Shown: positions 3,171-62,295 of the stretch, in pieces
How positions within the stretch are numbered: the stretch's first letter is position 1
Layout of the letters: each line of letters starts with the position of its first letter
Assembly (NCBI GenBank): GCA_024653945.1
Contig: JANLIT010000002.1
Location: 11,940-75,939 of the forward strand
From: Candidatus Campbellbacteria bacterium
GTDB lineage: Bacteria; Patescibacteriota; Minisyncoccia; Phycocordibacterales; EsbW-18
DNA: 64,000 nt
Reading direction: 5' to 3'
Translations under genes and position numbers: made by a program
The notes under the pieces: generated by a model
Told to the model about the DNA's origin: nothing
The model's database searches: none
Seen by the model: the letters and a program-made list of their open reading frames with translations, nothing else

Positions 3171-3340
3171 TTCGCTACGTACACGCCGGACCCTGTATGC
3201 AACAGGCTCCGCCTATTAAAAATACAGAAACCACTTGCAAAAAGACAATAAAAATGTACTATGGGTAAGCCCATGTGGGCCTCTTTTTATGAGGACGGGG
3301 CTTCCAACCTCTCACTTCTAACCTCCAACTTCCACTTTAT

Positions 3341-3526
3341 ATGAAGACCAACAAAGCATATTCAAAACGACTTCGCATCACGAAAAACGGTAAGGTTATC
3401 GGCCGAAAAGCTGGTGGCAACCACTACAATGCTAAGGAGTCCCGAAGCACACAACTCGCACGCAAGCGTTCACGAATCATTTCACTTACACCAAAAATCC
3501 GCACGCGTTATTTGCCGTCAAAGTAG
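3341..3526 (+). CDS. rpmI: 50S ribosomal protein L35
   Basis: 61 aa basic protein MKTNKAYSKRLRITKNGKV..RKAGGNHYNAK between infC and rplT (conserved infC-rpmI-rplT order). Confidence 0.85.
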   Translation: MKTNKAYSKRLRITKNGKVIGRKAGGNHYNAKESRSTQLARKRSRIISLTPKIRTRYLPSK

Positions 3527-3574
3527 TTTTCTTATTTCCAACGTCTAACATCTAACTTCCAACTTCCACTTTAT

Positions 3575-3946
3575 ATGACCCGAGTAAAACGAGGAACAAT
3601 TGCACTCAAACGCCGTCGAAATGTGCTCAAACGAGCAAAGGGTTTTCGTAATACACGAAAGAGTAAGGAGAAGCTCGCAAAGGAGTCACTCGTAAAGTCA
3701 GGAATGCACGCATTTGCACACCGCAAAGATAAGAAAAATGATTTCCGTCGATTGTGGCAAACACGCATTTCCGCAGCGGTTGCTCCCCACAACATTTCAT
3801 ACAGCAAATTCATTGGTCTCGTGAATGCAAAAAAGATAACACTGAACCGCAAGATGCTCGCAGAAATCGCGATGACACATCCTCAAACATTTGAACGTAT
3901 CGTCAAACAAGTTCTCGCTCCTCAAACAAAGACAACCGCAAAATAA
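3575..3946 (+). CDS. rplT: 50S ribosomal protein L20
   Basis: MTRVKRGTIALKRRRNVLKRAKGF..RLWQTRISAA..ISYSKFI: L20 signature. Confidence 0.9.
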   Translation: MTRVKRGTIALKRRRNVLKRAKGFRNTRKSKEKLAKESLVKSGMHAFAHRKDKKNDFRRLWQTRISAAVAPHNISYSKFIGLVNAKKITLNRKMLAEIAMTHPQTFERIVKQVLAPQTKTTAK

Positions 3947-3956
3947 TAAAAACACC

Positions 3957-3992
3957 CCCAACATCCTATCGGGGGTATTTTTATGTCCACAA
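3957..3992. terminator. bidirectional intrinsic terminator between rplT (+) and the ABC exporter (-)
   Basis: aaaacaccccc-aacatcctatc-gggggtatttttat: hairpin with T-runs on both strands. Confidence 0.6.
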
Positions 3993-4012
3993 AAAATTAC
4001 TGTGTCTTTACA

Positions 4013-7510: not shown

Positions 7511-7532
7511 AGCTGAATTATATAAAAGAAAT

Positions 7533-11406: not shown

Positions 11407-13181
11407 ACCCCAGGAAATTCAACGAGGAAGGTGGAGCCTTTACCTCGTCCTTTGGACTCGGCCCATATGCGTCCATTGTGTGCAGTAACAATTTGCTTGG
11501 CAATAAAGAGTCCGTAGCCGGTGCTGTGCACATTGGTGATGCGTGAGTCTTTTCCGCGCCCACCCTCGGTGAAGAGCACCGCCTTGTCTTCGTCCGTCAG
11601 CCCCACACCGCTATCTTTAACAGAGAAAATAATCTTACCGTCTTTGTGTGCAAGAGACACGGTCACCGAACCCTCTGGCGTGTAGTTGATGGCGTTATCA
11701 ATAAGATTTTTAAGCACGTGATTGAAAATATAGTCGGCATCTCCTGAAATCGTATATTCATCCCCCTCTGGTATATCCAAAGCAAGTGCTAGTTTCTTGG
11801 TTTCGGCGCGCCTCTTCATGTCCTCAATCCCCTTCATAAGCAATTCCTTCAAACTCAAATTTTGCATTGCATATGTGACTTGCCCCGTCTTAAAGTCAGA
11901 CACATGCAAGAAATTTTTAACCTCAGTAACTCCCTCTTGTGTACGCCTCAATGCTTCTATAGATATCGCCTTAATATCGGGAGCAACGGGACCAAAACTT
12001 TCAGTGGCAATCGCATCAAACCCAGCCGATGCATCAGTAAGGTACCCTTTAACTTCGTGTGTGATGAACCGGAGTGTCTCAAGTTGTCGCACATTCGCAA
12101 ATTCCAAACTCTTTGCAAGTTTCTGTGTCTCCTCACGCAATCGCACTTCCTGTTTCACACTTTTAATAAGGGCTGTTCCGACGGCCGTAACTAGGCCAAG
12201 CGTCGCAATAATCACATATCGAACATTTTCAATTCTTCGAACAAAGAGCATCGCAAATACCAAGACACCAAGGGCTATCACAAGCATTTGCGTCCCAATA
12301 ATACGCGTGTTGAAGGCATGAAACTTCACCATCATGTATGCAAGAAAGGCAATGAAGAGAACCATTCCAATTGGTCCAATTAGGTTCACCTCATACACGG
12401 AAAAAATATCACCAGCAACGTTAGTTGCTGTAAATATGGAAAGGAAGAACACCGACGCTACTGAAAGCATGACAATCTGCTTTTTAAATTCACCTTCTGC
12501 CGTCTTACGGAAATAGTGAATTCCTAGGTAACCAACAAATGCAATTGCAAAGAATTCGAGAGCATAGATGTAATACCAGAGAGGCCCGTTTATACCCTCG
12601 CAATTAATAAGGTCAAAGGCAACCATATTAAAGCGCGAAGGTAACAAAGCAATAACCGGTGCATACAAGAGGAGAAGTACTCCGTTTTGGTTAATATTCA
12701 AACTCGACTTCTTTAAATAAGTCCAAGTAAAATAGACAACTAAAAACACTAGTGTTACCTGGAAAAATGCCGACATTTCCCAACCAAAATGAACAAAATC
12801 TGCTCGAACAGCTATCCACGTCACTACCTCATTTAAAATAAGTGACGCAAACGTTAGAGAAAGCGCGAGTAGTAGTCTTGAGTGTATTTGTTTTGGGTTT
12901 TTAAAAAAGATAAAAAATCCAAAAAAAACTGAAAAAATAGCGATTGGCAAATATGCATAATAAAGGAGCGTGGGTGCAATTGTTGTATCAAACAAACCAA
13001 GGAAGTTTGCTGTCGAATCGAGACAAAGTAACATTTCCATAACAAAATTGTATAATAGATTCATGAAAAAACAAAAGGGGTATTCGTGGATGAATAAGGG
13101 TTTAAAAGTTAAAAATACAAAAAAGTATGGGGGTGGGGTTTTTGCTACTAGAAATATAGCCAAAAACGAGATACTGGCCAT
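11403..13181 (-). CDS. sensor histidine kinase (multi-TM sensor, HisKA + HATPase_c)
   Basis: About 9 N-terminal TM helices, H-box FITHEVKGYL, N/G boxes (LKNLIDNAINYT, DSGVGL, GYGLFIAKQIV), C-terminus ..STFLVEFPGV*. Likely true start is the ATG near 13040 (MEMLL..). Confidence 0.85.
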   Translation of the reverse strand: MASISFLAIFLVAKTPPPYFFVFLTFKPLFIHEYPFCFFMNLLYNFVMEMLLCLDSTANFLGLFDTTIAPTLLYYAYLPIAIFSVFFGFFIFFKNPKQIHSRLLLALSLTFASLILNEVVTWIAVRADFVHFGWEMSAFFQVTLVFLVVYFTWTYLKKSSLNINQNGVLLLLYAPVIALLPSRFNMVAFDLINCEGINGPLWYYIYALEFFAIAFVGYLGIHYFRKTAEGEFKKQIVMLSVASVFFLSIFTATNVAGDIFSVYEVNLIGPIGMVLFIAFLAYMMVKFHAFNTRIIGTQMLVIALGVLVFAMLFVRRIENVRYVIIATLGLVTAVGTALIKSVKQEVRLREETQKLAKSLEFANVRQLETLRFITHEVKGYLTDASAGFDAIATESFGPVAPDIKAISIEALRRTQEGVTEVKNFLHVSDFKTGQVTYAMQNLSLKELLMKGIEDMKRRAETKKLALALDIPEGDEYTISGDADYIFNHVLKNLIDNAINYTPEGSVTVSLAHKDGKIIFSVKDSGVGLTDEDKAVLFTEGGRGKDSRITNVHSTGYGLFIAKQIVTAHNGRIWAESKGRGKGSTFLVEFPGV

Positions 13182-15210: not shown

Positions 15211-15747
15211 TTAGAACATCGAGGAGACGGACTTGATGATCCACTCACCAGCCTCGAGGCCAGTGAAGACTGCGAGCGTCCACCACGTATTGGCGATGAC
15301 GAACGAGACGAGGAAGATTCTCCAGTCCCGAGCCGTCATGCCGTTGTACTGGTGTGCCCCACGGCGCATGTACACGGTGCAGATGAACGGGTCAAACTTC
15401 ACCGAGAGGATCAGCATGACCATCCAGTCGCCGCGGCGCATCGCCCACTGCATCACCTTGTGAAAGAACTTCTCCTTCTCATCGGCATCGCGAACCTCTT
15501 TGAGCGTCTCGATGCCCAACCAGTCGGTACGCGACCAGTCGTAGAAACGAATGGTTGCGTAGCAAACCGCGAGAGACAGAACCCACATGATGGCCGCGCC
15601 GACGAGCGTACCAAAGTACAACATGACGGCCGGGTAGAGCAGGTAGTCAAACCCCTGCACCATCAGGAAGTTGGCAGTAAGGCCAACTCCCAGAATGCCC
15701 AGACGCTCTTTCCATGTCTTGGGCTGCTGAGTATTGGACATTACCAA
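15211..15747 (-). CDS. GC-rich integral membrane protein, unknown function
   Basis: 178 aa, 4-5 TM segments, SD AAGGGAGG before the ATG, ~58% GC. Confidence 0.5.
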   Translation of the reverse strand: MVMSNTQQPKTWKERLGILGVGLTANFLMVQGFDYLLYPAVMLYFGTLVGAAIMWVLSLAVCYATIRFYDWSRTDWLGIETLKEVRDADEKEKFFHKVMQWAMRRGDWMVMLILSVKFDPFICTVYMRRGAHQYNGMTARDWRIFLVSFVIANTWWTLAVFTGLEAGEWIIKSVSSMF

Positions 15748-15850
15748 CCTCCCTTTCGGATCACAACATGAGGTTCATCCCCATGTTTTCTGTTGTCTAT
15801 TATAGCATAAAGAAGTGTGTTGTCAAGACACTCCACAGGTCCTGCCCGAG

Positions 15851-17162: not shown

Positions 17163-17380
17163 ATACGTGGATTATACCCCAAAAAAATATAAAAAAGAAA
17201 ATGGTGGTGTTTGGTGGTGTTTACCAATTACCACCATTGATCAAAAAATGTTTTCTCACCATCTAGGAATGAGTTTCTCAGGATGGTAAGTGGTCCAAAA
17301 CAGAGGACACCCACCTGCGCAGACGTTAAATTTTTCATACTCAACACGCCTCTGTGCCCGTCTGACAAATAAATAAGGAA

Positions 17381-17440
17381 GGCTACAGTTGGGACAGAAA
17401 ACCCAATCTTTGGGTATCTTTGTAGCCTTCCTTTTAATTC
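17381..17440 (-). terminator. intrinsic terminator after 17434..17967
   Basis: 13-bp stem aaggaaggctaca...tgtagccttcctt followed by a T-rich run on the minus strand. Confidence 0.55.
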
Positions 17441-17967
17441 GCCTTACGGAAATCCTTGATGATTTTGTCTGCACCGTCTCGGTCGATGATGTCCCACGCA
17501 CGTTTATAGTTCTCGTTTGTAGTGTTCCGTGCCACCTTCAACTGCCCACCGGACAGAATAAGCGACAGAATTGCATATGTCATCACGTGGTTGCGTACCT
17601 TTTGGCTTTCATTAGGAAACGGCAACGGCGCGTGTTCCGAACCAGACATCAATCGATGGGTGAGTTCATGGCACAGGGCAACAATGAACTCTTCTTCCGT
17701 GTATCGACTTTTGAGAACCAACGGACGCGAATGGTCTCGTATAGTCCCTGAAAGAACATAGCACTCAATGTGTGGCTCGAATGTGAGTCCTGTGATTTGC
17801 TCCATGTGAGCCATGAGTGCCGAACCAATCTGAGCCCAAATGCGCTCATAGTTGTCCCTGCGGGATTCCAGTTCCTCCTTTGACGGCGGCGTCCAAGTCG
17901 GATAGGCCTCAATTGCCTCCGCTTCGTGGAGACGATTGAGTTCCTCACTTGTGTGAAAGGTAATCAT
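17434..17967 (-). CDS. GC-rich hypothetical protein with HExxH motif (ALCHELTHRL)
   Basis: ATG at 17967 with SD GGAGAA 5 nt upstream (the track's TTG start is 17979). Confidence 0.5.
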   Translation of the reverse strand: MITFHTSEELNRLHEAEAIEAYPTWTPPSKEELESRRDNYERIWAQIGSALMAHMEQITGLTFEPHIECYVLSGTIRDHSRPLVLKSRYTEEEFIVALCHELTHRLMSGSEHAPLPFPNESQKVRNHVMTYAILSLILSGGQLKVARNTTNENYKRAWDIIDRDGADKIIKDFRKAN

Positions 17968-18038
17968 GGTGTTCTCCAATTAAAGATGCCCCCCGCGTAC
18001 TTATCAGGGGGGCAAGTGGTTCGGTAGAGACTTCAGTC

Positions 18039-20468: not shown

Positions 20469-20887
20469 GATGATTGGTTAGAAAGTGGATTTGGTGAAAG
20501 CATAGAACGCACCATGAGCCATGAGGTAATTGAGCCAATACAATCCATAATCAAATCTCCTGCGGTATCAGTTACAATATTTGTCTGTGCAACATACATC
20601 CCATTAAGATATTCAAAAAATTCCCAACTGATGCCAATAACTATCCCTGTTCCGAGTGCAACATACAACATCTGTTGGATCTGTGTATATGATGCTGGAG
20701 TAAAACGCACAAACGCCCATAGTCCAACTCCAGAAACAACAAAACCACCAAGAAAATGCATCATGATGTCGTACCACCAGAACGTCCAGTAATAAAAATT
20801 GACTTGTGCTATCTCATTAAGAAAATAGACAAGGAGTGCAGTGAATAAAAGTATGAAAAGAAAGATGTGTTGGTGTCGTGAGGGCAC
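20465..20887 (-). CDS. small integral membrane protein
   Basis: 4 predicted TM helices; 4-nt overlap with the upstream gene. Confidence 0.45.
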   Translation of the reverse strand: MPSRHQHIFLFILLFTALLVYFLNEIAQVNFYYWTFWWYDIMMHFLGGFVVSGVGLWAFVRFTPASYTQIQQMLYVALGTGIVIGISWEFFEYLNGMYVAQTNIVTDTAGDLIMDCIGSITSWLMVRSMLSPNPLSNQSS

Positions 20888-29312: not shown

Positions 29313-29906
29313 TTAGTTATTGGACAGTACGCTAACAATTTTTTCTTGCACCTCTTCAATCGTCCCCATACCGTCAATTTCAAGAAGCGTTCCTTGTTGT
29401 TTAAAGAAGTCCAGTGACCCTTGTGTGTTGTTTTGATACTCTTGGAGACGTTTTGTTATAATCGCTTCGTTGTCATCAGATCGTGTCTCAACTTGTGCTC
29501 GTCCTTTAATTCGCAAACGAAGTTCTTCATCGGGAATGTTGAGATACACAACCACATACGGTCGCTTCAAATAGCGCATCACCTCATCAAATAATTTTGC
29601 CTCCTCAAGTACACGAACCGCACCATCAAAAATAATTCCCTTATCATGACCGAGTGTAACCATTGCTGAAGTCCAGAGATATGACACAATCCAATGTGGA
29701 ACTAAAATTCCTTGGTCCATATCTTTTAAAATCTCTGCACCAATATCTGGATGTGACTGTGCAAGCGCCTTCAGATGTCCCGACGATGAAAAAACAGAAA
29801 ATCCTAATTTTTCTGAAAGCAGTTTTGCCTGCGTTCCCTTTCCAGAACCCGGCTTTCCAAGAATGACGATGGTGTTATATTGCATGCCTTCAGTATACCC
29901 GAGCAC
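29313..29906 (-). CDS. adk: adenylate kinase (short form, no zinc lid)
   Basis: P-loop ILGKPGSGKGTQA; ..GFLLDGFPR-like ..GIIFDGAVR. Confidence 0.9.
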   Translation of the reverse strand: MLGYTEGMQYNTIVILGKPGSGKGTQAKLLSEKLGFSVFSSSGHLKALAQSHPDIGAEILKDMDQGILVPHWIVSYLWTSAMVTLGHDKGIIFDGAVRVLEEAKLFDEVMRYLKRPYVVVYLNIPDEELRLRIKGRAQVETRSDDNEAIITKRLQEYQNNTQGSLDFFKQQGTLLEIDGMGTIEEVQEKIVSVLSNN

Positions 29907-34835: not shown

Positions 34836-34970
34836 CTATTTTTAAATTCGAAATACGAATATCGAAATTCGAAACAAATTCGAAGTTATAGATTTTAAAG
34901 TTTTAAGCATTTGAATATTCATATTTTGTGCTTGTTTCGAGCTTCGTGCTTCGATATTCGTGCTTATCTT
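34836..34970. repeat. ~130-bp r-protein leader repeat upstream of rplF
   Basis: tttttaaattcgaaatacgaatatcgaaattcgaaacaa...catttgaatattcatattttgtgcttgtttcgagcttcgtgcttcgatattcgtgcttat. Confidence 0.65.
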
Positions 34971-35363: not shown

Positions 35364-35414
35364 GGTAGTAAGTAGTATGTAGAAAGTAGTAGGTAGAAAG
35401 TAGTAAGCAAAAAA

Positions 35415-35912: not shown

Positions 35913-36761
35913 CTACTTTGACCAGGATTGTCTGCCCTTTGCCGAAGCAATTCGGCACCACAACAGGGATTGGGCTATGAGCCGATTTCGATGCCGTCGC
36001 TCTTCCTCATCACGAAGGTCTCTTGGTGTCTTGTGCTTACCACCACCGAGGAGAGCCCCAACGGCAAGGCTGTTTATCAACCACTGTTCCTTGTATTTCC
36101 CGAACAATTCATCCGACACAAATTCAAGGTAGTGGAGAATCTGAGACGCTTGATCTCGTTCAGAAATCTTCCTGCTCTTTTCCTTTTCGGATGGTAGCCG
36201 AGTTCCACCGGTAAACGTGAGCATATCGGCAGAACCCCAAAGCGCAAGTGCTCGAACCAGTGGCCCTGATTCCTGATAGTGGAAGTGCCACGGGCGCCCG
36301 TTCGTCCTAGGACCCACTAGAAGCATGGATATCGCTTCTCTCCAGGTGTGAAATTCCTTGCAGAGAAACTGCTGGATTCGAGACGGGTACGGAGGACGTA
36401 GCAGACATTCGTGCACAACCCCAAAGAACGAAATGAGGTCATTACGAAGAATGGCCGACCCTTCTTCCTTTTCGTCTCGAGAAAGCAGGTAGGTCTTGCC
36501 CAAAACCTCATCTGAAGCGATGACTCTGCGTGCTGTGTCCGCGACCCTGCCCTCTTCACCAACTTCGCGAAACACATTGAGCAGAAAGCGGGCCTTGTCT
36601 TTGAACAACTGACGCCCTTCCTCATCCCCTTCGATGGGCGGGTCATTCCAAAGACTGCCACAGGCGTAGAGCAGGCCTATGGCCTCCGCTTCCGTACTGA
36701 CCCTCTGCCAGCACTCCTCGAACTGCTCCCACGTACTAATGACCAACAACTCTTTTTTCAC
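35913..36761 (-). CDS. GC-rich (~58%) 282-aa hypothetical protein inserted between rplE and rpsN
   Basis: GTG start with SD AAAGGAGATCCACC; composition step relative to the flanking r-protein genes. Confidence 0.5.
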   Translation of the reverse strand: MKKELLVISTWEQFEECWQRVSTEAEAIGLLYACGSLWNDPPIEGDEEGRQLFKDKARFLLNVFREVGEEGRVADTARRVIASDEVLGKTYLLSRDEKEEGSAILRNDLISFFGVVHECLLRPPYPSRIQQFLCKEFHTWREAISMLLVGPRTNGRPWHFHYQESGPLVRALALWGSADMLTFTGGTRLPSEKEKSRKISERDQASQILHYLEFVSDELFGKYKEQWLINSLAVGALLGGGKHKTPRDLRDEEERRHRNRLIAQSLLWCRIASAKGRQSWSK

Positions 36762-36854
36762 GGTGGATCTCCTTTCTATAGTGTCGCTCGATGTTTGAGC
36801 GACGGGTCGATCCGCCGTTTATTCTCCACACACAGACACACAAGTCAAGCTACG

Positions 36855-37485: not shown

Positions 37486-37490
37486 ATCTT

Positions 37491-37606
37491 TTTAAATCCG
37501 AAATCCGAATATCGAAATCCGAAACAATATCTAATTTCTAAGGTTTTAAACATTTGAACATTCATACTTTGTGTTTGTTTCGAGTTTCGTACTTCGATAT
37601 TCGTAC
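37491..37606. repeat. ~130-bp r-protein leader repeat upstream of rplE
   Basis: aaatccgaaatccgaatatcgaaatccgaaacaatatctaatttctaaggttttaaacatttgaacattcatactttgtgtttgtttcgagtttcgtacttcgatattcgtactt. Confidence 0.65.
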
Positions 37607-37822: not shown

Positions 37823-37955
37823 ATTTTTTAAATCCGAAATCCGAATGTCGAAATCCGAAACAAATTCGAAATCATGAGTGTTGGGGTTTTTAACATTTGA
37901 ACATTCATATTTTGTGCTTGTTTCGAGCTTCGTGCTTCGATATTCGTGCTTATTC
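37823..37955. repeat. ~130-bp r-protein leader repeat upstream of rplX
   Basis: near-identical to 39441-39570. Confidence 0.65.
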
Positions 37956-38327: not shown

Positions 38328-38438
38328 AAATAATAGGGGTTGGGGGTTAGTAGTTGGTGGTTAGTGATTAGTTTTTGTTTGGTGGTTGGATTTGGTTTGT
38401 TTTTCCTAACGGTCAAACCAATGACCAACTTCTCATTC

Positions 38439-38690: not shown

Positions 38691-38784
38691 ATAAAGTGGA
38701 GGTTGGAAGTTTGAGGTTGGTGATTGGTTTTAGTTTAGTATAGTTTTTGCTACTTGCTATTTGTCATTTGTCATTTGTCATTTG

Positions 38785-39440: not shown

Positions 39441-39570
39441 ATATTTTTTTAAATTCGAAATCCGAATGTCGAAATCCGAAACAAATTCGAAATCATGAGT
39501 GTTGGGGTTTTAAACATTTGAACATTCATACTTTGTGCTTGTTTCGAGTTTCGTACTTCGATATTCGTGC
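39441..39570. repeat. ~130-bp r-protein leader repeat upstream of rplP
   Basis: tttttaaattcgaaatccgaatgtcgaaatccgaaacaaattcgaaatcatgagtgttggggttttaaacatttgaacattcatactttgtgcttgtttcgagtttcgtacttcgatattcgtgcttat. Confidence 0.65.
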
Positions 39571-40674: not shown

Positions 40675-40753
40675 ATAAAGTGGGGGTTGGAAGTTTGATG
40701 TTAGAGGTTGGATGAGTATTTTTGTTACACGTTACATGTCTTGTGGTACATGC

Positions 40754-41242: not shown

Positions 41243-41375
41243 CAACCTCCATTATTTTAGACTTTTCCACAGGGGTTGCTTTTTTGTATTGATACGGTAT
41301 AGTGCTTGAGGATGTTATTACGAGCGCACATACCCTATCCGCGGTTCAGCGGGTGGGTTTCTGGAGGAAGTAGCT

Positions 41376-41579
41376 ATGTGCAAGAAGTTTGAAGTGGTGG
41401 AACAAGCCCATCGAGAAAAGCGTAGAATCCGAGTCACTGGGCCTGGAACCAACTTCACCGGCACCGTCGAGAAGGTTAACCCCTCTCTCCTTTCGGCCGA
41501 AATCAGAGGTGAGGGGACTCACACCCACTTCTTCGCTGGCGGAGAAAGCGCCCGCGACTTCACTGTCACGCTGGTCTAG
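41376..41579 (+). CDS. GC-rich small protein (67 aa) within the rpsS-rplB insertion
   Basis: SD GGAGGAAGTAGCT before the ATG; ~60% GC. Confidence 0.4.
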   Translation: MCKKFEVVEQAHREKRRIRVTGPGTNFTGTVEKVNPSLLSAEIRGEGTHTHFFAGGESARDFTVTLV

Positions 41580-41757: not shown

Positions 41758-42150
41758 TCAGTGGACTGTTTCTCCTGACGGGTAAAACATCTTCCAGTAG
41801 TGACGTCCCATACCAGTAATGCAGAAGCATTGAACGAGAGATGTTCTCCCGAAGACTAGCCCAACGAACTCGGGCTGGCGCTGAAGGCTGAACTCCACCA
41901 ACCCATCGGTGCACATTGCCCGAAGTTCGAGCAGTATCTTTTCCTCAGTGGTCACCCTTAGAGCAACCAGTGGGGAGAACGCCCGAACCCTCTTCACCAA
42001 AGACGGGAGGGACATCCAATCGTCGGCAGCAACCAAATGCTTGAGAATTTCCTCTTTGAGAGTCGGGCCACTCTTCTTGCCCCAATCTTCTTCGAGAAGT
42101 TCCAAGGCTCCCCACAACAAGGTCCTTACCCTGTTCCAGTTTGTGGCCAT
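41758..42150 (-). CDS. GC-rich hypothetical protein (130 aa) within the rpsS-rplB insertion
   Basis: SD AAAGGAGACTCGAA before the ATG. Confidence 0.4.
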   Translation of the reverse strand: MATNWNRVRTLLWGALELLEEDWGKKSGPTLKEEILKHLVAADDWMSLPSLVKRVRAFSPLVALRVTTEEKILLELRAMCTDGLVEFSLQRQPEFVGLVFGRTSLVQCFCITGMGRHYWKMFYPSGETVH

Positions 42151-42279
42151 TTCGAGTCTCCTTTTTCTGGTTTAGTCTCGATAATCAAATCTGATAAAAA
42201 TGTAGCCGAAAATAAAGTCACTGTCAAGTTTTGTTGAACATCTGTTGACAATCTTTCAACAACAAACTATACTCATTTC

Positions 42280-43944: not shown

Positions 43945-44070
43945 AAAAATAAATCTGAAATTCGAATATCGAAATCCGAAACAATATCTAATTTCTAAAT
44001 TCTAAGGTTTTAAACATTTGAATATTCATATTTTGTGCTTGTTTCGTATTTCGAAATTCGTGCTTCGTAT
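43945..44070. repeat. ~130-bp r-protein leader repeat upstream of rplB
   Basis: aaatctgaaattcgaatatcgaaatccgaaacaatatctaatttctaaattctaaggttttaaacatttgaatattcatattttgtgcttgtttcgtatttcgaaattcgtgcttcgtat. Confidence 0.65.
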
Positions 44071-44532: not shown

Positions 44533-44664
44533 ATATTTTTTAAATTCGAAACCCGAATGTCGAAATCCGAAGCAGGTTCGAAATCATGGGCGTTTGGGTT
44601 TTAAATATTTGAACATTCATATTTTGTGTTTGTTTCGAGTTTCGTGTTTCGATATTCGTGTTTA
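44533..44664. repeat. ~130-bp r-protein leader repeat upstream of rplW
   Basis: tttttaaattcgaaacccgaatgtcgaaatccgaagcaggttcgaaatcatgggcgtttgggttttaaatatttgaacattcatattttgtgtttgtttcgagtttcgtgtttcgatattcgtgtttac. Confidence 0.65.
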
Positions 44665-46603: not shown

Positions 46604-46767
46604 TGTCCACAACAACGCCTCGACCAGCTAGTACAGCTGGTCGTTTTTTTATCCAGCACTTAAAGTTAAGTGCTGGATTTATTCCGATTTGATTTTTGAT
46701 TGACAAGACACACCACAAAGAATATTGTTGCCCCAGAAATGTATCCCAACTCCAGAAAGGAGCGCGT

Positions 46768-47085
46768 ATGAAATTTGCCATCGCCATAGGTCCAAAAGGT
46801 GGTGGACCTCACAAAGGCTTCATCGCTGAATCTGAGGAAAACATCAAAATACGAACCGCACGTCTTCGAGAACATGGATTCACCATCGTTCCTATCAACG
46901 TTTCCCTTCTACCGTCTGACACTGAGGTCGCAAAGATGTTTGCGGAGAGTCAAATTCACCGGTCTATCGACCCAACTACCACCGAACTCTTTGAGGCCGT
47001 CATGAACTTGGGAATCAAGATTGGCTGGAAAGCTAGGGGACAAGACATCGTCTCCCACATCAGTGGTTGTTGTCGAAAAAAGTAA
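46768..47085 (+). CDS. small hypothetical protein (~105 aa), cassette gene 2; paralogous context to gene 3
   Basis: sigma70-like promoter TTGACA-17-TATTGT (about 46692-46720), SD AGGAGCGCGT, terminator cacgaccagcccaccagctggtcgtttttg (47107-47140). Confidence 0.5.
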   Translation: MKFAIAIGPKGGGPHKGFIAESEENIKIRTARLREHGFTIVPINVSLLPSDTEVAKMFAESQIHRSIDPTTTELFEAVMNLGIKIGWKARGQDIVSHISGCCRKK

Positions 47086-47210
47086 CTTCAACCAAACACG
47101 CTCTCACGACCAGCCCACCAGCTGGTCGTTTTTGTTTTATTGACAAAACAGACCATGAAGAATAGTGTTACCCCAGAATCAATCACGCGTTCCACATAAG
47201 GAGAAAAGTT

Positions 47211-47510
47211 ATGAAGCTCGGCGTCGTACTTCGCTCTGATGGTACAGTTTTCGGAGACATCATGTCTCCAACCGCGGAAGGCTTCGGCAACGCAATGGCT
47301 CGTGTACCAGATGGATTCATGGTCATTGAGGTCTCCGTCGACCTCGATCCAGAACAAGCTTCTGCGGTTCAGAAGCTTGGAAACAACGAGCTCTCAATGG
47401 AAGAGCTCCGACGCATAAGCCATTTGATCCGTCTCGGAATTCAGATGGGAATTGAGGTTCAGAAAGTACTCGCCATCTTCCGCATCCATGATGGCCGTCG
47501 AAAAAAGTAG
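47211..47510 (+). CDS. small hypothetical protein (99 aa), cassette gene 3
   Basis: promoter TTGACAAAACAGACCATGAAGAATAGTGTT, SD AAGGAGAAAAGTT, near-identical terminator (47527-47560). Confidence 0.5.
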   Translation: MKLGVVLRSDGTVFGDIMSPTAEGFGNAMARVPDGFMVIEVSVDLDPEQASAVQKLGNNELSMEELRRISHLIRLGIQMGIEVQKVLAIFRIHDGRRKK

Positions 47511-47639
47511 CGACCGCCGGATGTACCCCACGACCAGCCCACCAGCTGGTCGTTTTTGTCTTAAAACATACGGAGCGAGCCCTAAAGGATTGCTGTTTGT
47601 AGTCAATCACTTCGTTCTTGAACAAACAGGGAACCTCTA

Positions 47640-49769: not shown

Positions 49770-49976
49770 TCAAAGAACGACATCCTGTGTCTCATCGGAA
49801 TGGAACTCGGGCACATCTTCCGAGCGCACGCCGTAATCCAACCACGTATCGTGCGTCTCGAGGTATGACGCGCACCACCTCAAGAAAAGCTTTGTGCTGA
49901 TTCCTGCCACCACCATACATCCGATGGTGATGAGGAACGGCATGGGTGAAATGTCTGGCGGAAGCGGGAGGCTCAT
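49770..49976 (-). CDS. GC-rich small membrane protein (68 aa)
   Basis: SD GAGGTGA before the ATG; 10 nt after the upstream gene's stop. Confidence 0.4.
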   Translation of the reverse strand: MSLPLPPDISPMPFLITIGCMVVAGISTKLFLRWCASYLETHDTWLDYGVRSEDVPEFHSDETQDVVL

Positions 49977-49985
49977 GTTGTCACC

Positions 49986-50519
49986 TCACTTCGTGTTGTG
50001 CAGAGGCATTGATGTCGGTGTGGGAAGAAGTGCGGCGGACACTGGCACCCACGACTCCCGCGCCTTCGTCTCCGAGAGCGCGCGAATGAATTCTGGGGAG
50101 AAGGCGAAGGTGTCGTCATCAGCCTCGTGGCACATGAACCGTGTCTCAAAGGCCAAAATGTCAAAACCACGTTGTGCTTCGAGACGCATTTTTCGAGAAT
50201 CCTCAATCAACGTCTCCAGAAGTACGCGCTCGAAACTCTCCCAGGGACTCTTCGTGCCACTCAGCATTTTCTCCAAAAAGAAGTTGACACAGACAACGCT
50301 GTACTCAACCTCGATGTGAGAATGCTTGTGCTCTCGAAAATGCGTACGGATGATATCGGGAATGTGCTTCCGAATATCATCCGTCGACGGGCGAGGTGCC
50401 TGCACGCTCTTCTGCCAGGCGGCGTCACGTTCAGAGGTGCTTGTGATAAGTCCTCTGACAAGAAGTGCACAAAAAGCCACGATGAGAGTCATGATAAGTA
50501 AAGCGAGCGAGAACGGCAT
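49986..50519 (-). CDS. GC-rich membrane-anchored protein (177 aa)
   Basis: N-terminal TM helix, SD GAAAGGGG, promoter-like TTGACA-18-TATTAT upstream (about 50580-50615). Confidence 0.5.
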   Translation of the reverse strand: MPFSLALLIMTLIVAFCALLVRGLITSTSERDAAWQKSVQAPRPSTDDIRKHIPDIIRTHFREHKHSHIEVEYSVVCVNFFLEKMLSGTKSPWESFERVLLETLIEDSRKMRLEAQRGFDILAFETRFMCHEADDDTFAFSPEFIRALSETKARESWVPVSAALLPTPTSMPLHNTK

Positions 50520-50639
50520 GGTGGACCCCTTTCCAGAGAGTTGCGACGTTTAGCGTGAACACAGGTTATTTTCCGAGGTCAATAATACACCAAAGTATAC
50601 ATCTTTGTCAATCCCATTCTTTTGTATCCTGTGGATACG

Positions 50640-51700: not shown

Positions 51701-51819
51701 CTGTAAAAAGAAAACAATTGACAGATACTGTTTTCAGGCGTACGTTTGCGACAGAACATACGCAGGTTAACGCATGTATCCTCTTGAGCCTTGGCTAGGA
51801 GGAAGAAAGGGTCCATCCA

Positions 51820-52494
51820 ATGAACGCTGGAGAACTGAAGGTATTGGTGGGAAAGTGTTTCGGACAATTTTTCCTCAAAATCTGGACATCCGTGGCTTTG
51901 GTGGCCATCGGCACGGTCATACTCGGCATCGAACTTTTCGTACGTGAGAGTGGGCCGAATCTTTTTCTTTTCCTTATCGGGGTAATACTCATCGTTTGGG
52001 GGCTTGCTCTCTCGATACGGTTCACCAACAAGCTGAGGGGGCTCCGACGGACCCTGGCCGAGTACGAGGAGGCGTGGCGCACACGGATGTGGACGGGAGG
52101 AAATCTCGGTCTTGTGATTTCTTCTCTCGTGGAAAACCGTCTGGTGGATATGTGGCAGCGGGGCGTCTTTGCCGAAGAGCTGGTTAAGACACTTGGTGTC
52201 GGCCCATACCAAGTGGATGCTCTTTTCGAGGTGCCGTTCACGAATGGGGACATTCGCGATGAAGAGGTTGATTTACAGACCGGGTTGGGATGGCTACTCC
52301 ACGGTAAGTATCTCGTTCCGGCGGAGCACGGCTTTGGGGCGTTCGTCTGGTCGGACACGAAGGTGTACGAGAAATTCTTCGCACTTCCAGAGAATAGGAT
52401 GCGCGACGACTTCGACCCGAACAAGGAACCCGAGCTTCTCGACGCCGTGCGCGATGGCCGTGTTTCACTCCCCGGTGGTGTAAAAATCACCTAA
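51820..52494 (+). CDS. GC-rich membrane-anchored hypothetical protein (224 aa)
   Basis: 2 N-terminal TM helices; AGGAGG upstream; terminator cccgag..ctcggg after the stop, plus palindromic ggaagccaggcttcc hairpins. Confidence 0.5.
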   Translation: MNAGELKVLVGKCFGQFFLKIWTSVALVAIGTVILGIELFVRESGPNLFLFLIGVILIVWGLALSIRFTNKLRGLRRTLAEYEEAWRTRMWTGGNLGLVISSLVENRLVDMWQRGVFAEELVKTLGVGPYQVDALFEVPFTNGDIRDEEVDLQTGLGWLLHGKYLVPAEHGFGAFVWSDTKVYEKFFALPENRMRDDFDPNKEPELLDAVRDGRVSLPGGVKIT

Positions 52495-54140: not shown

Positions 54141-54281
54141 ATGTATTAGGTTAAATTCGAAATTCAAATATCGAAATCCGAGACAATATCTCATTTTCTA
54201 AATCAAAATGTTTTAAACATTTGTACATTAGAATTTTGAATTTGTTTCGTGTTTCGTACTTCGATTTTCGTGCTTATAGTA
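54141..54281. repeat. ~130-bp r-protein leader repeat upstream of rplL
   Basis: ttaaattcgaaattcaaatatcgaaatccgagacaatatctcattttctaaatcaaaatgttttaaacatttgtacattagaattttgaatttgtttcgtgtttcgtacttcgattttcgtgcttat. Confidence 0.6.
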
Positions 54282-58923: not shown

Positions 58924-58924
58924 C

Positions 58925-61369
58925 TTATATCTCTTCAATTGTTGGGTCGTCTAACTCCGATGGGTCCAATTCACTTGCACATCCTGGGTCGGCTTCTTTA
59001 TTGGGAGGGGTAACTTCCCAGTAATCAATCTTTCCATCACCATCATCATCAAGTCCGTTGTTACATTGTGTTACTGGTTTAATTGGCGCCGGTTTACAGC
59101 GTGGATCTGTCGGGTCAACATCACACTGCGGAGGTTTTTGATCACTTTCACTATCATCTTCCCCGCTCGTGCACCCTGGGTCGTCATCTCTTGTGCCGCG
59201 AATTCCATCTTTACCAAGATAATCAACAAAAGTATCGCCATCATTGTCTAACATATCGGAACACTGCGGTGGGCGCGTTCCAATTTGTACTGAATCCGAA
59301 AGAGTACCGCTCGTTGCGGCCACAGTTACAGCTGCAGTTGGAACTACGACTTTGGTACACGTAATGGTGAACATGAGCAAGTCATCAGAAGTAATTGGAT
59401 TACTTGGCAACGTGCCATTATCAGGTTTAGTACCTGTCCAACCACCACTAGCAACACACGAACCCACACCCCTACTCGTCCAAGAAAGCGTTGCTGATTT
59501 GTTGTACAAAACTCTCACTGGTCCATCTGATAGCGGACCACCAACTTCACCTGCCTTAAGGTCAAGCTTGGGACCCGTATCATCGTCGTCGTCTCCAATT
59601 GGAGTATAGGTAATTGTAAAGGTGATGTCGGAACCTGTATCTGGGATACTTTGTGATGCCGTTGCTGGTTCAATAACTGGACCTGTAAAGTTTGGAAGTG
59701 TTGGAACGTTTGAAATGGTGTAATCGCCCGGTTTTTGGTTTGCATACGTTTCACTTTGTGATGGTGTGTCCTGTTCAAGCGGTGCACCACTGCTTCTTGT
59801 GATACTCCATGTTGTTGGTTGGTTTGATACAACCCGCACACTTCCTTTGACAACAACGTCACATGTTCTTGTGACACCCCCGCTAGTTAAGCTCACTGTT
59901 TTTGTGTTTGCGACTGCGTACGCTGGGGTACATGGTGAAACGTTTGCCTCACACGTAGGGCTCCCGCCCGTATTCCATGTGTATGGAATAGTTGCATTTT
60001 GTGCTTCGATAGATGCTGGAACAAGAACTCCTTTTTGTTGTGTTGCAGGAGAACATGCGAGTCCTACAGGCGGTACTGCAGAAACCGTTACAGCACAGGT
60101 AGCAGTTTCTATACCCCGCGTGACAACGACTGATTTTGCACCCGCAGTACCCCATTGTGTTGTAAATGTCGCCGTGTTTCCACCGGTTGCCGGCGTACCT
60201 CCTCCTGTCCAACTGTATGTTCCAGAACCATTTGTTGCTGTAAATTGTTGGTTCGTGTTGAGAGGAACTATTACTGGTGTCGGGGAACAGATAAGAGCTG
60301 TTGGGGGGGCGACGGGGACCGTTACCGAAACACTGTCACTGTCACTTCCTCCTGCATTTGAACAAATGATGGTGTATGTTCTGTTTGAAGTGCCGTTCAC
60401 AATACCTGCTTGCACATTTGTTGGAGAAACTCCTTTTGTTCCACTCCACCCAGCAACTGTCGGCGAAGCGGATGCAGTACACGTTGTTGGGTTGTTTGTT
60501 GTTATCCATTGAAGATCTATTGAACCACCCGTTGCTGGTAGTGAGATTGGTCCGTTCGTATAACCACCCGTATTTGCAATGCGACCCCTAAGGGCGACTG
60601 TCGGTGGTGGATTAGCAATATCATCGTTGGTAATCGTACACGTCTTATTCTGTTCTCCGGCGAGTGTTACAGAACCACTTGCAGTACAATCGCCTCCCCA
60701 CGTGCCGGCCGTATATCCAGGAAGATTGGTTTCAGACACGGTGTATGTTCCTGCGTGAAAGTAGTTGCTGGCACCACTTGTTACTGATGTGGTATTTACG
60801 CGCAAAGGAAAGGCCGAAACGAGTGCGGTTCCGCCACTGTTGTTAATAACAGTTTTAGTAACGGTAAGGTGTGGTCCACACAAAGGCAGAGGGTAGGACG
60901 CAAATTCATAGTCAAAAACCGTGTAGGCCGGCATTTGTGCAAAATCTGGGTTTGTTGTGGGTGCACTTGGACCTTCAAAGAAATCGGATTGATATTGACA
61001 CGTGGAAGGTTGTGACCTTGATATTGTTCTTGTTATACCAGGTCCAATTGAATTCGTGGCATCACTATAGAGCGTTTGTGTTGCAAGGAATGTCGTCCCC
61101 GAGCCCCCTTGCCACTCATCAAATACCTTGTATGTAGCCATGTGAATTGAATACGTACACTCTGTTGAGAAATTTTTTACTTCAATTGACGTGGGAAGAT
61201 TGCTGGTAACGCTAAATGGATTACCGTTTGGCTGACGGAGGTCTGCTCGTGGATTAGGAACGCATGTTGCATACGCGGGTGTTGGTGCAACAAAAAAAGC
61301 ACCGAAGACCGTGAGGGTGGCGAGGAGAAGTGTGGTGTTACTTATTTTAGATACAGTGTGTGTGGTCAT
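58925..61369 (-). CDS. giant (814 aa) secreted paralog with the same C-terminal Cys/Asp-rich repeat module and the same C-terminal ending
   Basis: signal peptide MTTHTVSKISNTTLLLATLTVFGAFFVAPTPAYA; internal domain ~45% identical to the neighbour's; C-terminus ..TQCNNGLDDDGDGKIDYWEV....DPGCASELDPSELDDPTIEEI*. Confidence 0.8.
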   Translation of the reverse strand: MTTHTVSKISNTTLLLATLTVFGAFFVAPTPAYATCVPNPRADLRQPNGNPFSVTSNLPTSIEVKNFSTECTYSIHMATYKVFDEWQGGSGTTFLATQTLYSDATNSIGPGITRTISRSQPSTCQYQSDFFEGPSAPTTNPDFAQMPAYTVFDYEFASYPLPLCGPHLTVTKTVINNSGGTALVSAFPLRVNTTSVTSGASNYFHAGTYTVSETNLPGYTAGTWGGDCTASGSVTLAGEQNKTCTITNDDIANPPPTVALRGRIANTGGYTNGPISLPATGGSIDLQWITTNNPTTCTASASPTVAGWSGTKGVSPTNVQAGIVNGTSNRTYTIICSNAGGSDSDSVSVTVPVAPPTALICSPTPVIVPLNTNQQFTATNGSGTYSWTGGGTPATGGNTATFTTQWGTAGAKSVVVTRGIETATCAVTVSAVPPVGLACSPATQQKGVLVPASIEAQNATIPYTWNTGGSPTCEANVSPCTPAYAVANTKTVSLTSGGVTRTCDVVVKGSVRVVSNQPTTWSITRSSGAPLEQDTPSQSETYANQKPGDYTISNVPTLPNFTGPVIEPATASQSIPDTGSDITFTITYTPIGDDDDDTGPKLDLKAGEVGGPLSDGPVRVLYNKSATLSWTSRGVGSCVASGGWTGTKPDNGTLPSNPITSDDLLMFTITCTKVVVPTAAVTVAATSGTLSDSVQIGTRPPQCSDMLDNDGDTFVDYLGKDGIRGTRDDDPGCTSGEDDSESDQKPPQCDVDPTDPRCKPAPIKPVTQCNNGLDDDGDGKIDYWEVTPPNKEADPGCASELDPSELDDPTIEEI

Positions 61370-61449
61370 AGGAATAAGTGATAAGGCGGAGGAGTTTGGC
61401 TCCTCTGGAGGAGCTAAACTCCTCCGACTTATAGTGGTAATAGTATTTA

Positions 61450-62043
61450 TTATTGTCGAGCAACGTACGCAATGTGCACCTTCACACCCGTAGCACCACT
61501 GGAAAGCGTTATATTTACATCATTTCCGTCCTTTGTGGCATAGAAATTAGTCACAGGATTCTCTGTAGGTGTTGCCTCTTTCACAATCGTCCACCCTTGT
61601 GTGGTCAAAAGATTCTTGAAAAGAGCGATGTTTTCCTCGAGTGTCTTTGCCGACACATATTCAACTGTTGGAAGCTGTTCGTTACGGTTTGTGTACGTAA
61701 GTTTTGCACTAGTACCAATAGTGACACCTTCTTCAGGTAGAAGTTCCTGCGGAAAACCTGCAATAATCTGTCCTTGTTCGGCAACTTCAGACGTGTAATC
61801 CTTTTCTTCTTCTACAGGAGCTACTGGTTGTTTGTTCAGAAGAGCAAAGAGTCCCCACCCAATGAGAATAATAAGCAAAATAATCAGAAACACACGAAGT
61901 GGTTTCATGTGGTGTCCTTGTGTCGGCATTCCGCCAGAAACTTCCTGACTAAGTGGTGTTGTGCGCATGTCTTCCATATATAAAAGGTTAGTAGAATAAA
62001 TGTTGTATGTAGTACTACAAATAATACACCTTATATAGTACAC
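61450..62043 (-). CDS. membrane-anchored hypothetical protein (true start probably an internal Met near 61910-61980)
   Basis: single TM LRVFLIILLIILIGWGLFALL followed by a ~130-aa soluble domain. Confidence 0.45.
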   Translation of the reverse strand: MYYIRCIICSTTYNIYSTNLLYMEDMRTTPLSQEVSGGMPTQGHHMKPLRVFLIILLIILIGWGLFALLNKQPVAPVEEEKDYTSEVAEQGQIIAGFPQELLPEEGVTIGTSAKLTYTNRNEQLPTVEYVSAKTLEENIALFKNLLTTQGWTIVKEATPTENPVTNFYATKDGNDVNITLSSGATGVKVHIAYVARQ

Positions 62044-62089
62044 GCCACGGGTGGTCTACCATATCGCATCTGTGGATATACAGATGTCA

Positions 62090-62118
62090 TTGACTTTTGC
62101 CACAATGGGGAGTATGCT
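62090..62118 (+). promoter_or_regulatory. sigma70-type promoter TTGACT-17-TATGCT for nusA; leader contains terminator-like hairpin gtcgcgccagaatggtcgcgattttt (~62150-62178)
   Basis: read directly. Confidence 0.45.
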
Positions 62119-62295
62119 CCATGGTGTTAGTGCAGAGAGGAATGTCGCGCCAGAATGGTCGCGATTTTTGTTTAAAGTATTGGGTTAGGTGTTGGCAATT
62201 AGTTTTGGTTTAGTTTTTTATTCTTAATACATACTACTTTCTACATACCACTTTCTACTTACTACATTCTACTTACTACTTAACCCTATCCACAT

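Follow-up and report, generated by a model that had tools for sequence, protein, structure and literature searches.

How translation starts are marked was studied in a 64-kb stretch of DNA with 44% GC from a Candidatus Campbellbacteria genome (Parcubacteria), hereafter the window, for which NCBI lists two of the encoded proteins as Candidatus Campbellbacteria bacterium (locus tags NUW02_00570 and NUW02_00670). With moderate confidence we propose that three kinds of start signal stand side by side in this genome: candidate leaderless genes, genes preceded by heptamer-repeat leaders that lack a Shine-Dalgarno (SD) motif, and genes rich in G and C at third codon positions (GC3) that are led by an SD motif. 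In the window 68 genes and their start codons were curated, 56 of them as native and 12 as GC3-rich "cassette" genes. The latter are given names such as c15741, and loci of related genomes are numbered L001, L002 and onwards.

Shine-Dalgarno motifs before GC3-rich and native genes

An SD-like 4-mer at positions -16 to -5 was found before all 12 cassette genes, but only before 3 of the 56 native ones (p=6e-11). When the genes were instead divided objectively at a GC3 of at least 0.5, the counts were 12/13 and 3/55 (p=8e-10). The native rate lies below the 10.7% background of all ATGs. A sequence-only reading of the same DNA had described SD-less initiation of the core genes and a dichotomy between the two classes, and both descriptions were borne out, the latter as a sharp one. 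A motif at a spacing of 5–8 nucleotides (nt) was present in 11 of the 12 cassette genes, in six of them as AAGGAG or AAAGGAG; rAAAGGAG, GGAGG and GGGAGG are the forms of the class apart from weaker cases, and manual reading gave AAAGGG at a spacing of 8 nt for the twelfth, c51820. The motifs of the class are complementary to CCUCCUUU and lie 5–9 nt before the start. That every GC-rich cassette gene carries AAGGAG or GGAGG had been stated too broadly: AAGGAG, GGAGG or GGGAGG stands before seven of the nine genes listed for it, whereas the gene at 17967 has only GGAG and that at 50519 AAAGGGG. The GC3 of SD-led and core genes was 0.61 vs 0.37 in the window, 0.77 vs 0.51 in L001 and 0.67 vs 0.64 in L002.

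The SD-led genes are concentrated at four gene junctions within the ribosomal-protein cluster (rpsJ/rplC, rplB/rpsS, rplE/rpsN and secY/adk) and around tuf. Each of them has a sigma-70-type promoter, a 5' untranslated region (5'UTR), an SD and a terminator of their own; the sigma-70-type promoters are common to native and cassette genes. The modules and open reading frames (ORFs) are the following.

15211..15753, minus strand: c15741, membrane protein with GC3 0.80; GGGAGG at 15748-15753, spacing 6
17434..17977, minus strand: c17967, orphan with GC3 0.56; GGAG at 17974-17977
30108..30650, minus strand: c30503 module with promoter, structured 5'UTR of ~95 nt, ORF and terminator; AAAGGAG at 30511-30517
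30720..31094, minus strand: c31007 module with TTGACT-17-TATTGT promoter, 86-aa ORF and terminator; AAAGGAG at 31014-31020
35913..36848, minus strand: c36761, 282-aa orphan (NCBI hypothetical protein NUW02_00670) with GTG start; AAAGGAG at 36769-36775
41363..41579, plus strand: c41376, 67-aa ORF; GGAGG at 41363-41367
41758..42227, minus strand: c42150, 130-aa orphan with promoter TTGACA-17-TACATT; AAAGGAG at 42158-42164
46700..47553, plus strand: c46768 and c47211, tandem modules; AAAGGAG at 46756-46762 and AAGGAG at 47198-47203
49770..50532, minus strand: c50519 and c49976; AAAGGGG at 50526-50532 and GAGG at 49984-49987
51798..52494, plus strand: c51820, membrane protein; GGAGG at 51798-51802 and AAAGGG at 51806-51811

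Three tandem modules lie between rplC and rpsJ on the plus strand, opposite to the ribosomal-protein operon, with terminators at 46621-46643, 47106-47129 and 47530-47553. The c46768 and c47211 modules share the terminator ACGACCAGC...GCTGGTCGT; the terminator hairpin ACGACCAGCCCACCAGCTGGTCGT is identical in the last two modules, and the first has a related hairpin. They look like duplicated expression modules, the coding parts of which have rapidly diverged.

The 5'UTR of c30503 (~95 nt; 30504-30610, minus strand) is 86% identical to positions 19440-19546 of L002, although the proteins behind the two leaders can barely be aligned (E=0.02). It contains three hairpins, one of them with a compensatory change from G:C to A:U, and from the sequence the CUCCggaaaGGAG hairpin could sequester the SD. 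This leader, which was not found in a scan of viral contigs, looks like a cis-regulatory RNA.

Heptamer-repeat leaders of translation-apparatus genes

Eleven genes, ten of which encode parts of the translation apparatus, are preceded on the mRNA strand by a tract of 29–82 nt that contains no G and ends exactly at the start codon. Nine of these leaders had been named before (rpmI, rplT, rpsQ, rplV, rplR, rpsE, rplN, rpsH and nusA), and all nine proved to be free of G over 31–82 nt; infC (29 nt) and a gene for an RNase J-like protein (32 nt) were added here.

2520..2548, plus strand: infC leader, CTACTTn-type heptamer, 29 nt, abuts the TTG start at 2549
3301..3340, plus strand: rpmI leader, TTCCAAC-type heptamer, 40 nt, up to the ATG
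3544..3574, plus strand: rplT leader, TTCCAAC-type, 31 nt, up to the ATG
20469..20500, minus strand: leader of the RNase J-like (beta-CASP) gene, 32 nt, up to the start
33734..33804, minus strand: rpsE leader, TTCCAAC-type array, 71 nt, up to the ATG
34213..34259, minus strand: rplR leader, 47 nt, up to the ATG, with a CAAATAG array further upstream (34261-34291)
35364..35407, minus strand: rpsH leader, CTACTTn array, 44 nt, occupies the whole rpsN-rpsH spacer up to the ATG
38328..38404, minus strand: rplN leader, 77 nt, up to the ATG
38691..38749, minus strand: rpsQ leader, 59 nt, up to the ATG, with a CAAATGA array further upstream (38759-38790)
40675..40727, minus strand: rplV leader, 53 nt, up to the ATG
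62214..62295, plus strand: nusA leader, CTACTTn heptamer, 82 nt, up to the ATG

The G-free tracts were also recovered without any annotation. In a scan of the window, G-free runs of 28 nt or more numbered 72, compared with 26.8 in shuffled sequences (shuffle maximum 41), and 13 of these, including all six that reach 49 nt, are terminated precisely by the G of a start ATG. Over positions -50 to +20 the G-free leaders had a mean minimum free energy (MFE) of -1.6 kcal/mol, compared with -12.6 kcal/mol for random 70-mers and -14.1 kcal/mol for the cassette leaders, and the probability of being unpaired around the start was 0.81. The folding energies thus uphold the earlier expectation that such leaders form no stable structure. 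The CCUCC within them, which had been read as the anti-SD itself, was present in three of eight G-free leaders where ~1.8 would be expected from a composition estimate. This difference is not significant, and we rejected a role of CCUCC as an anti-SD mimic, regarding it as a by-product of leader composition.

Promoters were located for rpmI (TTGCAA/TACTAT at about 3234-3263) and nusA (TTGACT-17-TATGCT at 62091-62119). Terminator-like hairpins followed by U-runs are present in the 5'UTRs of both genes (3270-3300 and 62135-62170, plus strand), just upstream of the G-free arrays, and may be attenuators.

The G-free leaders are arrays of the heptamers TTCCAAC and CTACTTA. Tandem Repeats Finder detected 35 arrays of period 7 in the window, 32 of which are intergenic, and they make up 8% of the intergenic nucleotides. 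The units, given here in the sense of the mRNA, are TTCCAAC, CTACTTA, CAAATAG, TTTCGGA, ACGAAGC and CTACAAG, each with 4–5 conserved and 2–3 variable positions. Fifteen arrays end 1–14 nt from a start codon, all of them before translation-apparatus genes; eight are G-free and seven of the TTTCGGA type, and none of the 15 starts has an SD. The G-containing leaders of the TTTCGGA type precede eight genes (rplO, rplF, rplE, rplX, rplP, rplB, rplW and rplL). The term "three-letter leaders" is incomplete: the leaders are tandem heptamer arrays, and an equally large class does contain G. Likewise, G-free leaders do not characterize the native genes as a whole: only about 11 of the 56 have one, these eight are led by TTTCGGA arrays with G, and others are leaderless or tightly coupled to the upstream gene.

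One array differs from the rest in that it is the sole long one without errors, a perfect (CTACAAG)5.6 at 58886-58924, which directly follows the stop of an 814-aa surface-protein gene, upstream of a 1217-aa gene, and may be prone to slippage.

A hairpin element with the TTTCGGA array as one arm

In seven spacers the TTTCGGA array was found to be the 3' arm of a hairpin repeat of ~130 nt. The element consists of a 5' arm of CGAAnnn units, a loop, a 3' arm of TTCGnnn units and an A-rich tail, and the arms pair through regularly spaced CGAA:UUCG helices of 4–5 bp that are conserved. All seven copies have the same orientation and in each the A-rich end lies 8–13 nt before the ATG. The copies are 60–96% identical, with an MFE of -22 to -28 kcal/mol for the sense strand, and are too similar to one another to reveal covariation, of which none was seen.

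34835..34970, minus strand: hairpin element of ~130 nt, occupies the rpsH/rplF spacer
37486..37606, minus strand: hairpin element, rplX/rplE spacer
37823..37955, minus strand: hairpin element, rplN/rplX spacer
39441..39570, minus strand: hairpin element, rpsC/rplP spacer, 96% identity to the copy at 37824-37954
43945..44070, minus strand: hairpin element, rplW/rplB spacer
44533..44664, minus strand: hairpin element, rplD/rplW spacer
54141..54281, minus strand: hairpin element, rplJ/rplL spacer
32990..33073, minus strand: partial element, rpsE/rplO; TTTCGGA arm at 32990-33034 is the rplO leader, ACGAAGC arm at 33044-33073 falls within the 3'-terminal part of rpsE

Two further functions of the element were considered, of which the first was rejected and the second is not supported. 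The best promoter candidate inside it, TCGACA-17-AAAAAT, has only 9 of 12 matches and lies too near to the ATG. A mini-ORF runs through the 3' arm and ends in TAA 8–13 nt before the start in five of the seven copies, but it is lost in the two with another core, and the copies share descent. No terminal inverted repeats with target-site duplications were apparent in the alignment of the hairpin copies, in which no dedicated search for duplications was made.

The C-terminal tail of rpsE (...KPKHEARSTKHETN; 33035-33085, minus strand) is coded by a perfect (ACGAAGC)4 array and has no counterpart in L001. In this case an arm of the repeat is absorbed into the reading frame of rpsE as a C-terminal tail.

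Candidate leaderless genes

A -10-like hexamer, defined as TAnnnT with at least five of six matches to TATAAT, was found 4–10 nt upstream of 9 of the 68 starts but of only 1.3% of the other ATGs (Fisher p=1e-6). In the nine genes the hexamer lies 6–9 nt before the start. From these positions we infer that the transcripts begin at or next to the start codon and that nine native genes are probably leaderless. TATAAT boxes had been reported 6–7 nt ahead of the start codons at 7510 and 13063; both exist, at a distance of 6 nt. Candidates include the following.

1328..1333, minus strand: TATGAT, 6 nt before the ATG of smpB
7517..7522, minus strand: TATAAT, 6 nt before the ATG of the gene at 7510
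13051..13056, plus strand: TATAAT, 6 nt before the ATG (13063) of a SET-domain gene
17171..17176, minus strand: TATAAT, 8 nt before the ATG of an M16 peptidase gene
29892..29897, minus strand: TATACT, 6 nt before the ATG of adk
42268..42273, plus strand: TATACT, 6 nt before the ATG of a trmB-like gene, with TTGACA 17 nt upstream; a candidate within a "cassette" region

Start regions and arrays in related genomes

When rpsC was used for a search, the closest genomes all belonged to Parcubacteria/Paceibacterota. The amino-acid identity of RpsC to that of the window was 95% for L001, 80% for L002 (a Candidatus Campbellbacteria genome), 80% for L003 and 77% for L004. At the DNA level the coding regions of L001 are ~80% identical to the window, and a metagenome scan for a near-identical strain gave no match closer than L001.

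The scarcity of SD motifs before core genes extends through the clade. Among 772 ribosomal-protein starts from 80 Parcubacteria loci an SD-like 4-mer at -20 to -5 was found in 31 (4%), compared with 117 (15%) at a control position, and the nearest upstream G lies at a median distance of 12 nt from these starts, the nearest C at 3 nt. In 160 Parcubacteria loci arrays of period 7 were the commonest, with 380 instances; periods 8, 10 and 11 followed with 152, 127 and 94. A heptamer array ends within 20 nt of the start in 95 of the 1308 starts of these loci.

The units of the relatives are dozens of unrelated heptamers, for example CCCTAAA, AACTTTA, CTACTAA and AGAAGCT. G-free units were CCCTAAA in L004 and L015, AACTTTA in L024, L076 and L080, and CAAACNA in L002. 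Judged by these units, G-free leaders evolved on several occasions, from differing repeats. In addition, G-poor arrays of differing units recur at the same junctions (rplN, rpsC, rplP and rplF). The recurrence of different units at the same place points to selection on the composition of the arrays rather than on one particular sequence.

Proposed mode of translation start and its alternatives

On the proposed reading, the first genes of many native units would give leaderless mRNAs that the ribosome binds directly at the 5' AUG. The G-free arrays allow neither G-C nor G-U pairing and offer no AUG, GUG or UUG and no SD-like purine run; over 30–80 nt of mRNA the G of the AUG is the first one. 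With no NUG and no pairing in the array, the true start codon is the only one and stands in an open region, where a 30S subunit would load without SD pairing, possibly assisted by protein S1. The hairpin element would fold the spacer of ~130 nt away, so that the upstream stop and the downstream AUG come close to each other and mimic the tight coupling of L001, and only the A-rich last ~10 nt would be left unpaired. On the GC3-rich genes with their structured 5'UTRs, pairing of SD and anti-SD would be needed to compete with the structure of the mRNA.

Several observations weigh against this proposal. The TTTCGGA leaders are structured (-9.3 kcal/mol) and do not belong to a low-structure class. 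The copies of an array within this genome share descent and are not independent observations. Three C-rich arrays (1456-1508, 54979-55045 and 58875-58924) run opposite to the flanking genes and are located 3' of genes. Throughout the clade the low-G bias of start-proximal arrays is moderate, with 57 arrays having less G than C and 28 the reverse (p=0.002), and G-freeness is a tendency, not a rule. In the closest relative, L001, little space separates the ribosomal-protein genes and almost none of the arrays is present, which means that the arrays are recent and dispensable. Finally, no more than 48% of the 16S genes of Parcubacteria were found to contain the CCTCCT anti-SD motif (PMC9297842).

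A rather unlikely alternative, though the best of those that concern the arrays, is that arrays and 130-nt elements are selfish or neutral repeats, which arose by slippage or spread in the manner of repetitive extragenic palindromic (REP) sequences or miniature inverted-repeat transposable elements (MITEs) and came to occupy the spacers. Their sole tie to translation would then be a negative one: selection removes copies that would place structure, start codons or SD-like runs beside a start codon, and the G-free orientations are left there. The absence of arrays from L001, the reversed arrays 3' of genes and the bias of just 57:28 all fit such an origin. The same applies to the identity of 65–96% among family copies, the arm within the rpsE frame and the perfect (CTACAAG)5.6 array that seems to have expanded recently. 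Such an origin is harder to reconcile with the eight C-rich arrays that abut starts, all eight of which are G-free on the sense strand and run to the ATG, or with seven out of seven hairpin elements in one orientation at an equal distance from the ATG. Start-proximal arrays were moreover found only at translation genes, and the rplN, rpsC, rplP and rplF junctions carry arrays of unrelated units in many genomes.

We consider it decidedly unlikely that the arrays are platforms for a protein that binds single-stranded RNA in a 7-nt register (a cold-shock-domain protein, S1 or another) and co-regulates the synthesis of ribosomal proteins, IF3 and NusA in place of autogenous leaders. Such a reader would account for the excess of period 7 over the other periods in the 160 loci, for units with some positions conserved and others variable, and for the restriction of the arrays to translation genes. 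It would also fit the Rfam results: no ribosomal-protein leader, riboswitch or small RNA was found in the whole window at the gathering threshold, nor in its 29-54 kb section at E<=1. The same candidate proteins have been proposed for the TAACTGA repeats discussed below (PMC4679880). Yet the units vary among close relatives and within one genome, with at least five types in the window and dozens across the clade; L001 manages without arrays, and a candidate protein was not identified. That the arrays act as DNA, be it as elements close to promoters, in the organisation of the nucleoid or by forming non-B DNA, is extremely improbable: some lie upstream of promoters or in either orientation and the CCCTAAA arrays of L004 and L015 put G-tracts on the template strand, but operon-internal arrays abut start codons strand-specifically and convincing promoter matches were not found inside the elements.

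Native or foreign origin of the SD-led genes

The sequence-only reading had taken the dichotomy between the gene classes as support for a foreign origin of the cassettes. Lateral exchange is plausible for the orphan cassettes, which make up most of the SD-led genes and vary in content between relatives. It does not apply to c15741, which is vertically inherited and syntenic, and hence the dichotomy is no proof of foreign origin.

c15741 is the cassette gene with the highest GC. It belongs to an unannotated membrane-protein family with no match in Pfam but at least 112 homologs, mostly in Parcubacteria, and its orthologs in L161, L163, L165 and L167 adjoin a purD-like ATP-grasp gene, as in the window. 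It is also more conserved than its neighbours (75% vs 64% for purD and 49% for the SET gene). By distribution and synteny it is an old, vertically inherited native gene of Parcubacteria. The GC3 of the ortholog is well above that of its neighbours and was 0.77 in L161, 0.55 in L163 (neighbours 0.28–0.48), 0.56 in L167 (0.29–0.38) and 0.41 in L165 (0.20–0.25, with one other neighbour at 0.45). Several of the neighbouring genes have a -10-like box near the ATG and appear leaderless by eye.

An SD of the AGAAAGGAGG type precedes the c15741 ortholog in every genome examined, with AAAGGAGGTGA in L167, and is kept throughout although the proteins are 45–75% identical and the GC content of the genomes ranges from 31 to 50%. 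Since the SD is kept before diverged orthologs, it is under selection in these genomes, which in turn implies a working canonical anti-SD at the tail of the 16S rRNA and two native regimes of initiation. The conserved AAAGGAGG(TGA) before the orthologs argues likewise that these lineages keep the canonical 16S tail, and we infer such a tail from the AAAGGAGGTGA conserved in L167. A 16S sequence was found neither in the window nor among the first 160 loci of relatives.

At the four junctions ORFs led by AAGGAG are also present in L001, L002 and L004, but their proteins are mostly unrelated; homology between cassettes at the same junction of different genomes was mostly undetectable. Both c50519 and c51820 have positional homologs in L001, with identities of 28% and 32%, amid flanking genes of 90–95% identity; the SD-like GAAAGGGT is kept before c51820 and its homolog. 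For c36761 only two other homologs were found among 5.8 billion proteins. An SD motif 5–9 nt before the start of SD-led genes was seen in L001, L002, L004, L161, L163, L165 and L167 as well. In L002 the SDs are confined to the SD-led class although the GC3 of core and SD-led genes is alike there, and a phylum-wide test for a link between SD and GC3 gave +0.028 for SD-led ORFs vs +0.018 for a control purine motif, no clear difference. We concluded that the genomes carry the SD class as a lasting component and not just as recent foreign DNA; it is made up of one old vertical gene and of fast-evolving or exchanged orphans at four junctions.

A model in which the GC-rich genes are recent foreign cassettes, their SDs being donor relics that the host ribosome does not read, is very improbable. 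It would explain the GC3 outliers, the lack of any match of the cassette proteins in Pfam, PHROGs or NCBIfam, the near absence of homologs of c36761 and the loss or replacement of cassettes at the same junctions in L001, L002 and L004. A host that cannot read SDs is conceivable in a clade of which about half reportedly lacks the anti-SD motif (PMC9297842). Against it stand c15741, syntenic and better conserved than its neighbours, with SD and raised GC in five genomes, the SD-like motif kept before pairs just 28–32% identical, and the dichotomy that holds in L002 without a GC difference. In addition, searches of the window's cassettes gave no integrase, transposase or phage family, and their promoters are of the host type.

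A more far-reaching model, which we regard as unlikely, takes the two native regimes to hold in one cell throughout Parcubacteria, an SD-blind majority served by leaderless mRNAs and heptamer leaders and an SD-dependent minority for the GC3-rich class, i.e. the conserved membrane protein and orphans of fast turnover. The 7-nt period would perhaps be a code for recruitment or regulation, recognised by an RNA-binding factor that is itself periodic. If this holds, the accessory set as a whole could be turned on or off by control of the access to the anti-SD, for example via heterogeneous ribosomes of the kind known for bS21 in Bacteroidia.

Comparison with known systems

Among known systems the nearest precedent for an SD-blind ribosome with SDs on selected genes would be that of Flavobacterium (PMC7797042, PMC9976891). 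In Bacteroidia SDs are lacking, and the anti-SD is kept but sequestered and used by few genes such as rpsU (PMC6847099, PMC7797042, PMC9976891). The likeness lies in SD-less core genes, low structure at the start and a minority of strong SDs that implies a usable anti-SD. The present case belongs to another phylum and differs in that its SD class comprises more genes (at least 12 within 64 kb), most of them orphans, and is rich in GC, and in having C-rich heptamer repeats instead of A-rich Kozak-like contexts. The protein bS21 is often absent in Parcubacteria, a subgroup of which has lost the anti-SD motif (Tsurumaki et al. 2022, PMC9297842). That study concerns the same clade and accounts for rare SDs, whereas the SDs of c15741 argue for a canonical tail here.

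Direct repeats of TAACTGA upstream of start codons have been described in Beggiatoaceae, Cyanobacteria and Bacteroidetes (MacGregor 2015, PMC4679880). Like the arrays of the window, they are tandem 7-nt repeats a few nucleotides from the start, occur in ribosomal-protein operons and occupy spacers without a canonical ribosome-binding site. By analogy the leaders of the window may work like the TAACTGA repeats. There, a single heptamer is conserved, whereas TTCCAAC, CTACTTA, TTTCGGA and dozens of others are found in Parcubacteria, many strictly G-free and some forming the arms of long hairpins. Parcubacteria would be the fourth SD-poor lineage with 7-nt repeat leaders. Unstructured start regions suffice for SD-less initiation (Scharff et al. 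2011, PMC3121790), and the near-zero folding energy around the AUG of the G-free leaders agrees with that model. The difference is that one base is wholly excluded here, which also removes NUG starts and SD-like runs; total exclusion of G is a very simple route to a leader without structure, start codons or SD-like runs.

Heptamers are further known from cyanobacteria as short tandemly repeated repetitive (STRR) sequences, a related case. Neither the TAACTGA nor an STRR unit is among those of the window, which places the arrays outside that repeat family. The Omega leader of tobacco mosaic virus and CA-rich enhancers that bind S1 are nearly G-free, rich in CAA or ACA and independent of an SD; Omega differs in being viral and not periodic. 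Leaderless mRNAs are known from Actinobacteria, Deinococcus-Thermus and archaea, and the -10 box 6–9 nt before the ATG is shared with these systems. Intergenic palindromic repeats are represented by REP sequences, bacterial interspersed mosaic elements (BIMEs) and MITE-like elements. The hairpin element resembles them as an imperfect palindrome of ~130 nt in seven intercistronic copies, but differs in its heptamer-array arms and in its fixed orientation and distance to the start.

In the literature that was searched, SD-less initiation, heptamer leaders, selective use of SDs and leaderless mRNAs were undescribed for Parcubacteria. The candidate phyla radiation (CPR), in which translation start is almost uncharted, makes up a large share of bacterial diversity, and gene callers and expression models that rely on SDs will misjudge its core genes. 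For annotation, the combination of high GC and an SD is no proof of foreign origin. The results also raise two questions, one about the reason for a period of 7 and one about the coupling of SD use to high GC3.

Gene content and other structured elements

The window contains smpB, infC-rpmI-rplT, rplJ-rplL, nusA and a tuf-S10-spc cluster of ribosomal-protein genes (minus strand, 28.5-49.5 kb) from which L30 is absent. ARAGORN found no tRNA in the window.

A conserved three-way junction of ~100 nt is present twice, at 47672-47772 (minus strand, just after the rpsJ stop) and at 51577-51670 (plus strand, ~170 nt upstream of c51820). It also occurs in L001 at ~2095-2190 and in L002 at 19260-19360, just after the secY stop. 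The sequence of the outer stem is wholly different in each copy but always pairs, i.e. it shows covariation, while two hairpins, GUGUCGUUUUC..GAAAACGCAC and CUCUCRCCCUC..GGGCUCCGAGAG, are near-invariant and GCTCRY motifs flank the element. The MFE in sense orientation is -41 to -58 kcal/mol. No Rfam family matched, and a loose motif search found copies only in this sub-clade. Possible identities are a new structured RNA and a small element that inserts into hairpins.

The region of ~190 nt upstream of rpsN (35685-35880, minus strand) is almost identical to positions 12815-13020 of L001, reaching near 100% over the last ~130 nt, compared with ~80% for coding DNA. It is GC-rich, has a consensus fold of -60 kcal/mol and matches no Rfam family. 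This region could represent a leader or a small RNA.

A terminator-like composite is repeated at 3092-3170, 21429-21524, 31138-31233 and 36840-36900, directly 3' of the stops of infC, ndk, secY and rplE. Its outer stem, TATTTTTGAAAG/CTTTCAAAAATA, encloses GAAAACCGCCnnnnGGCGGTTTTC and GGCACCGCCGTGCC, and two of the copies are 91% identical over 96 nt.

Two minor observations concern protein-coding genes on the minus strand. An ABC ATPase at 9143-10680 is spread over the ORFs 10333-10680 and 9143-10336, which share 4 nt and of which the second has the LSGGE signature. A frameshift, a sequencing error or decay to a pseudogene might explain the split. At 1519-2352 two paralogous genes for response-regulator receivers lie in tandem, with stretches that are 79% identical; a 276-aa ORF antisense to them (1529-2359) is probably spurious.

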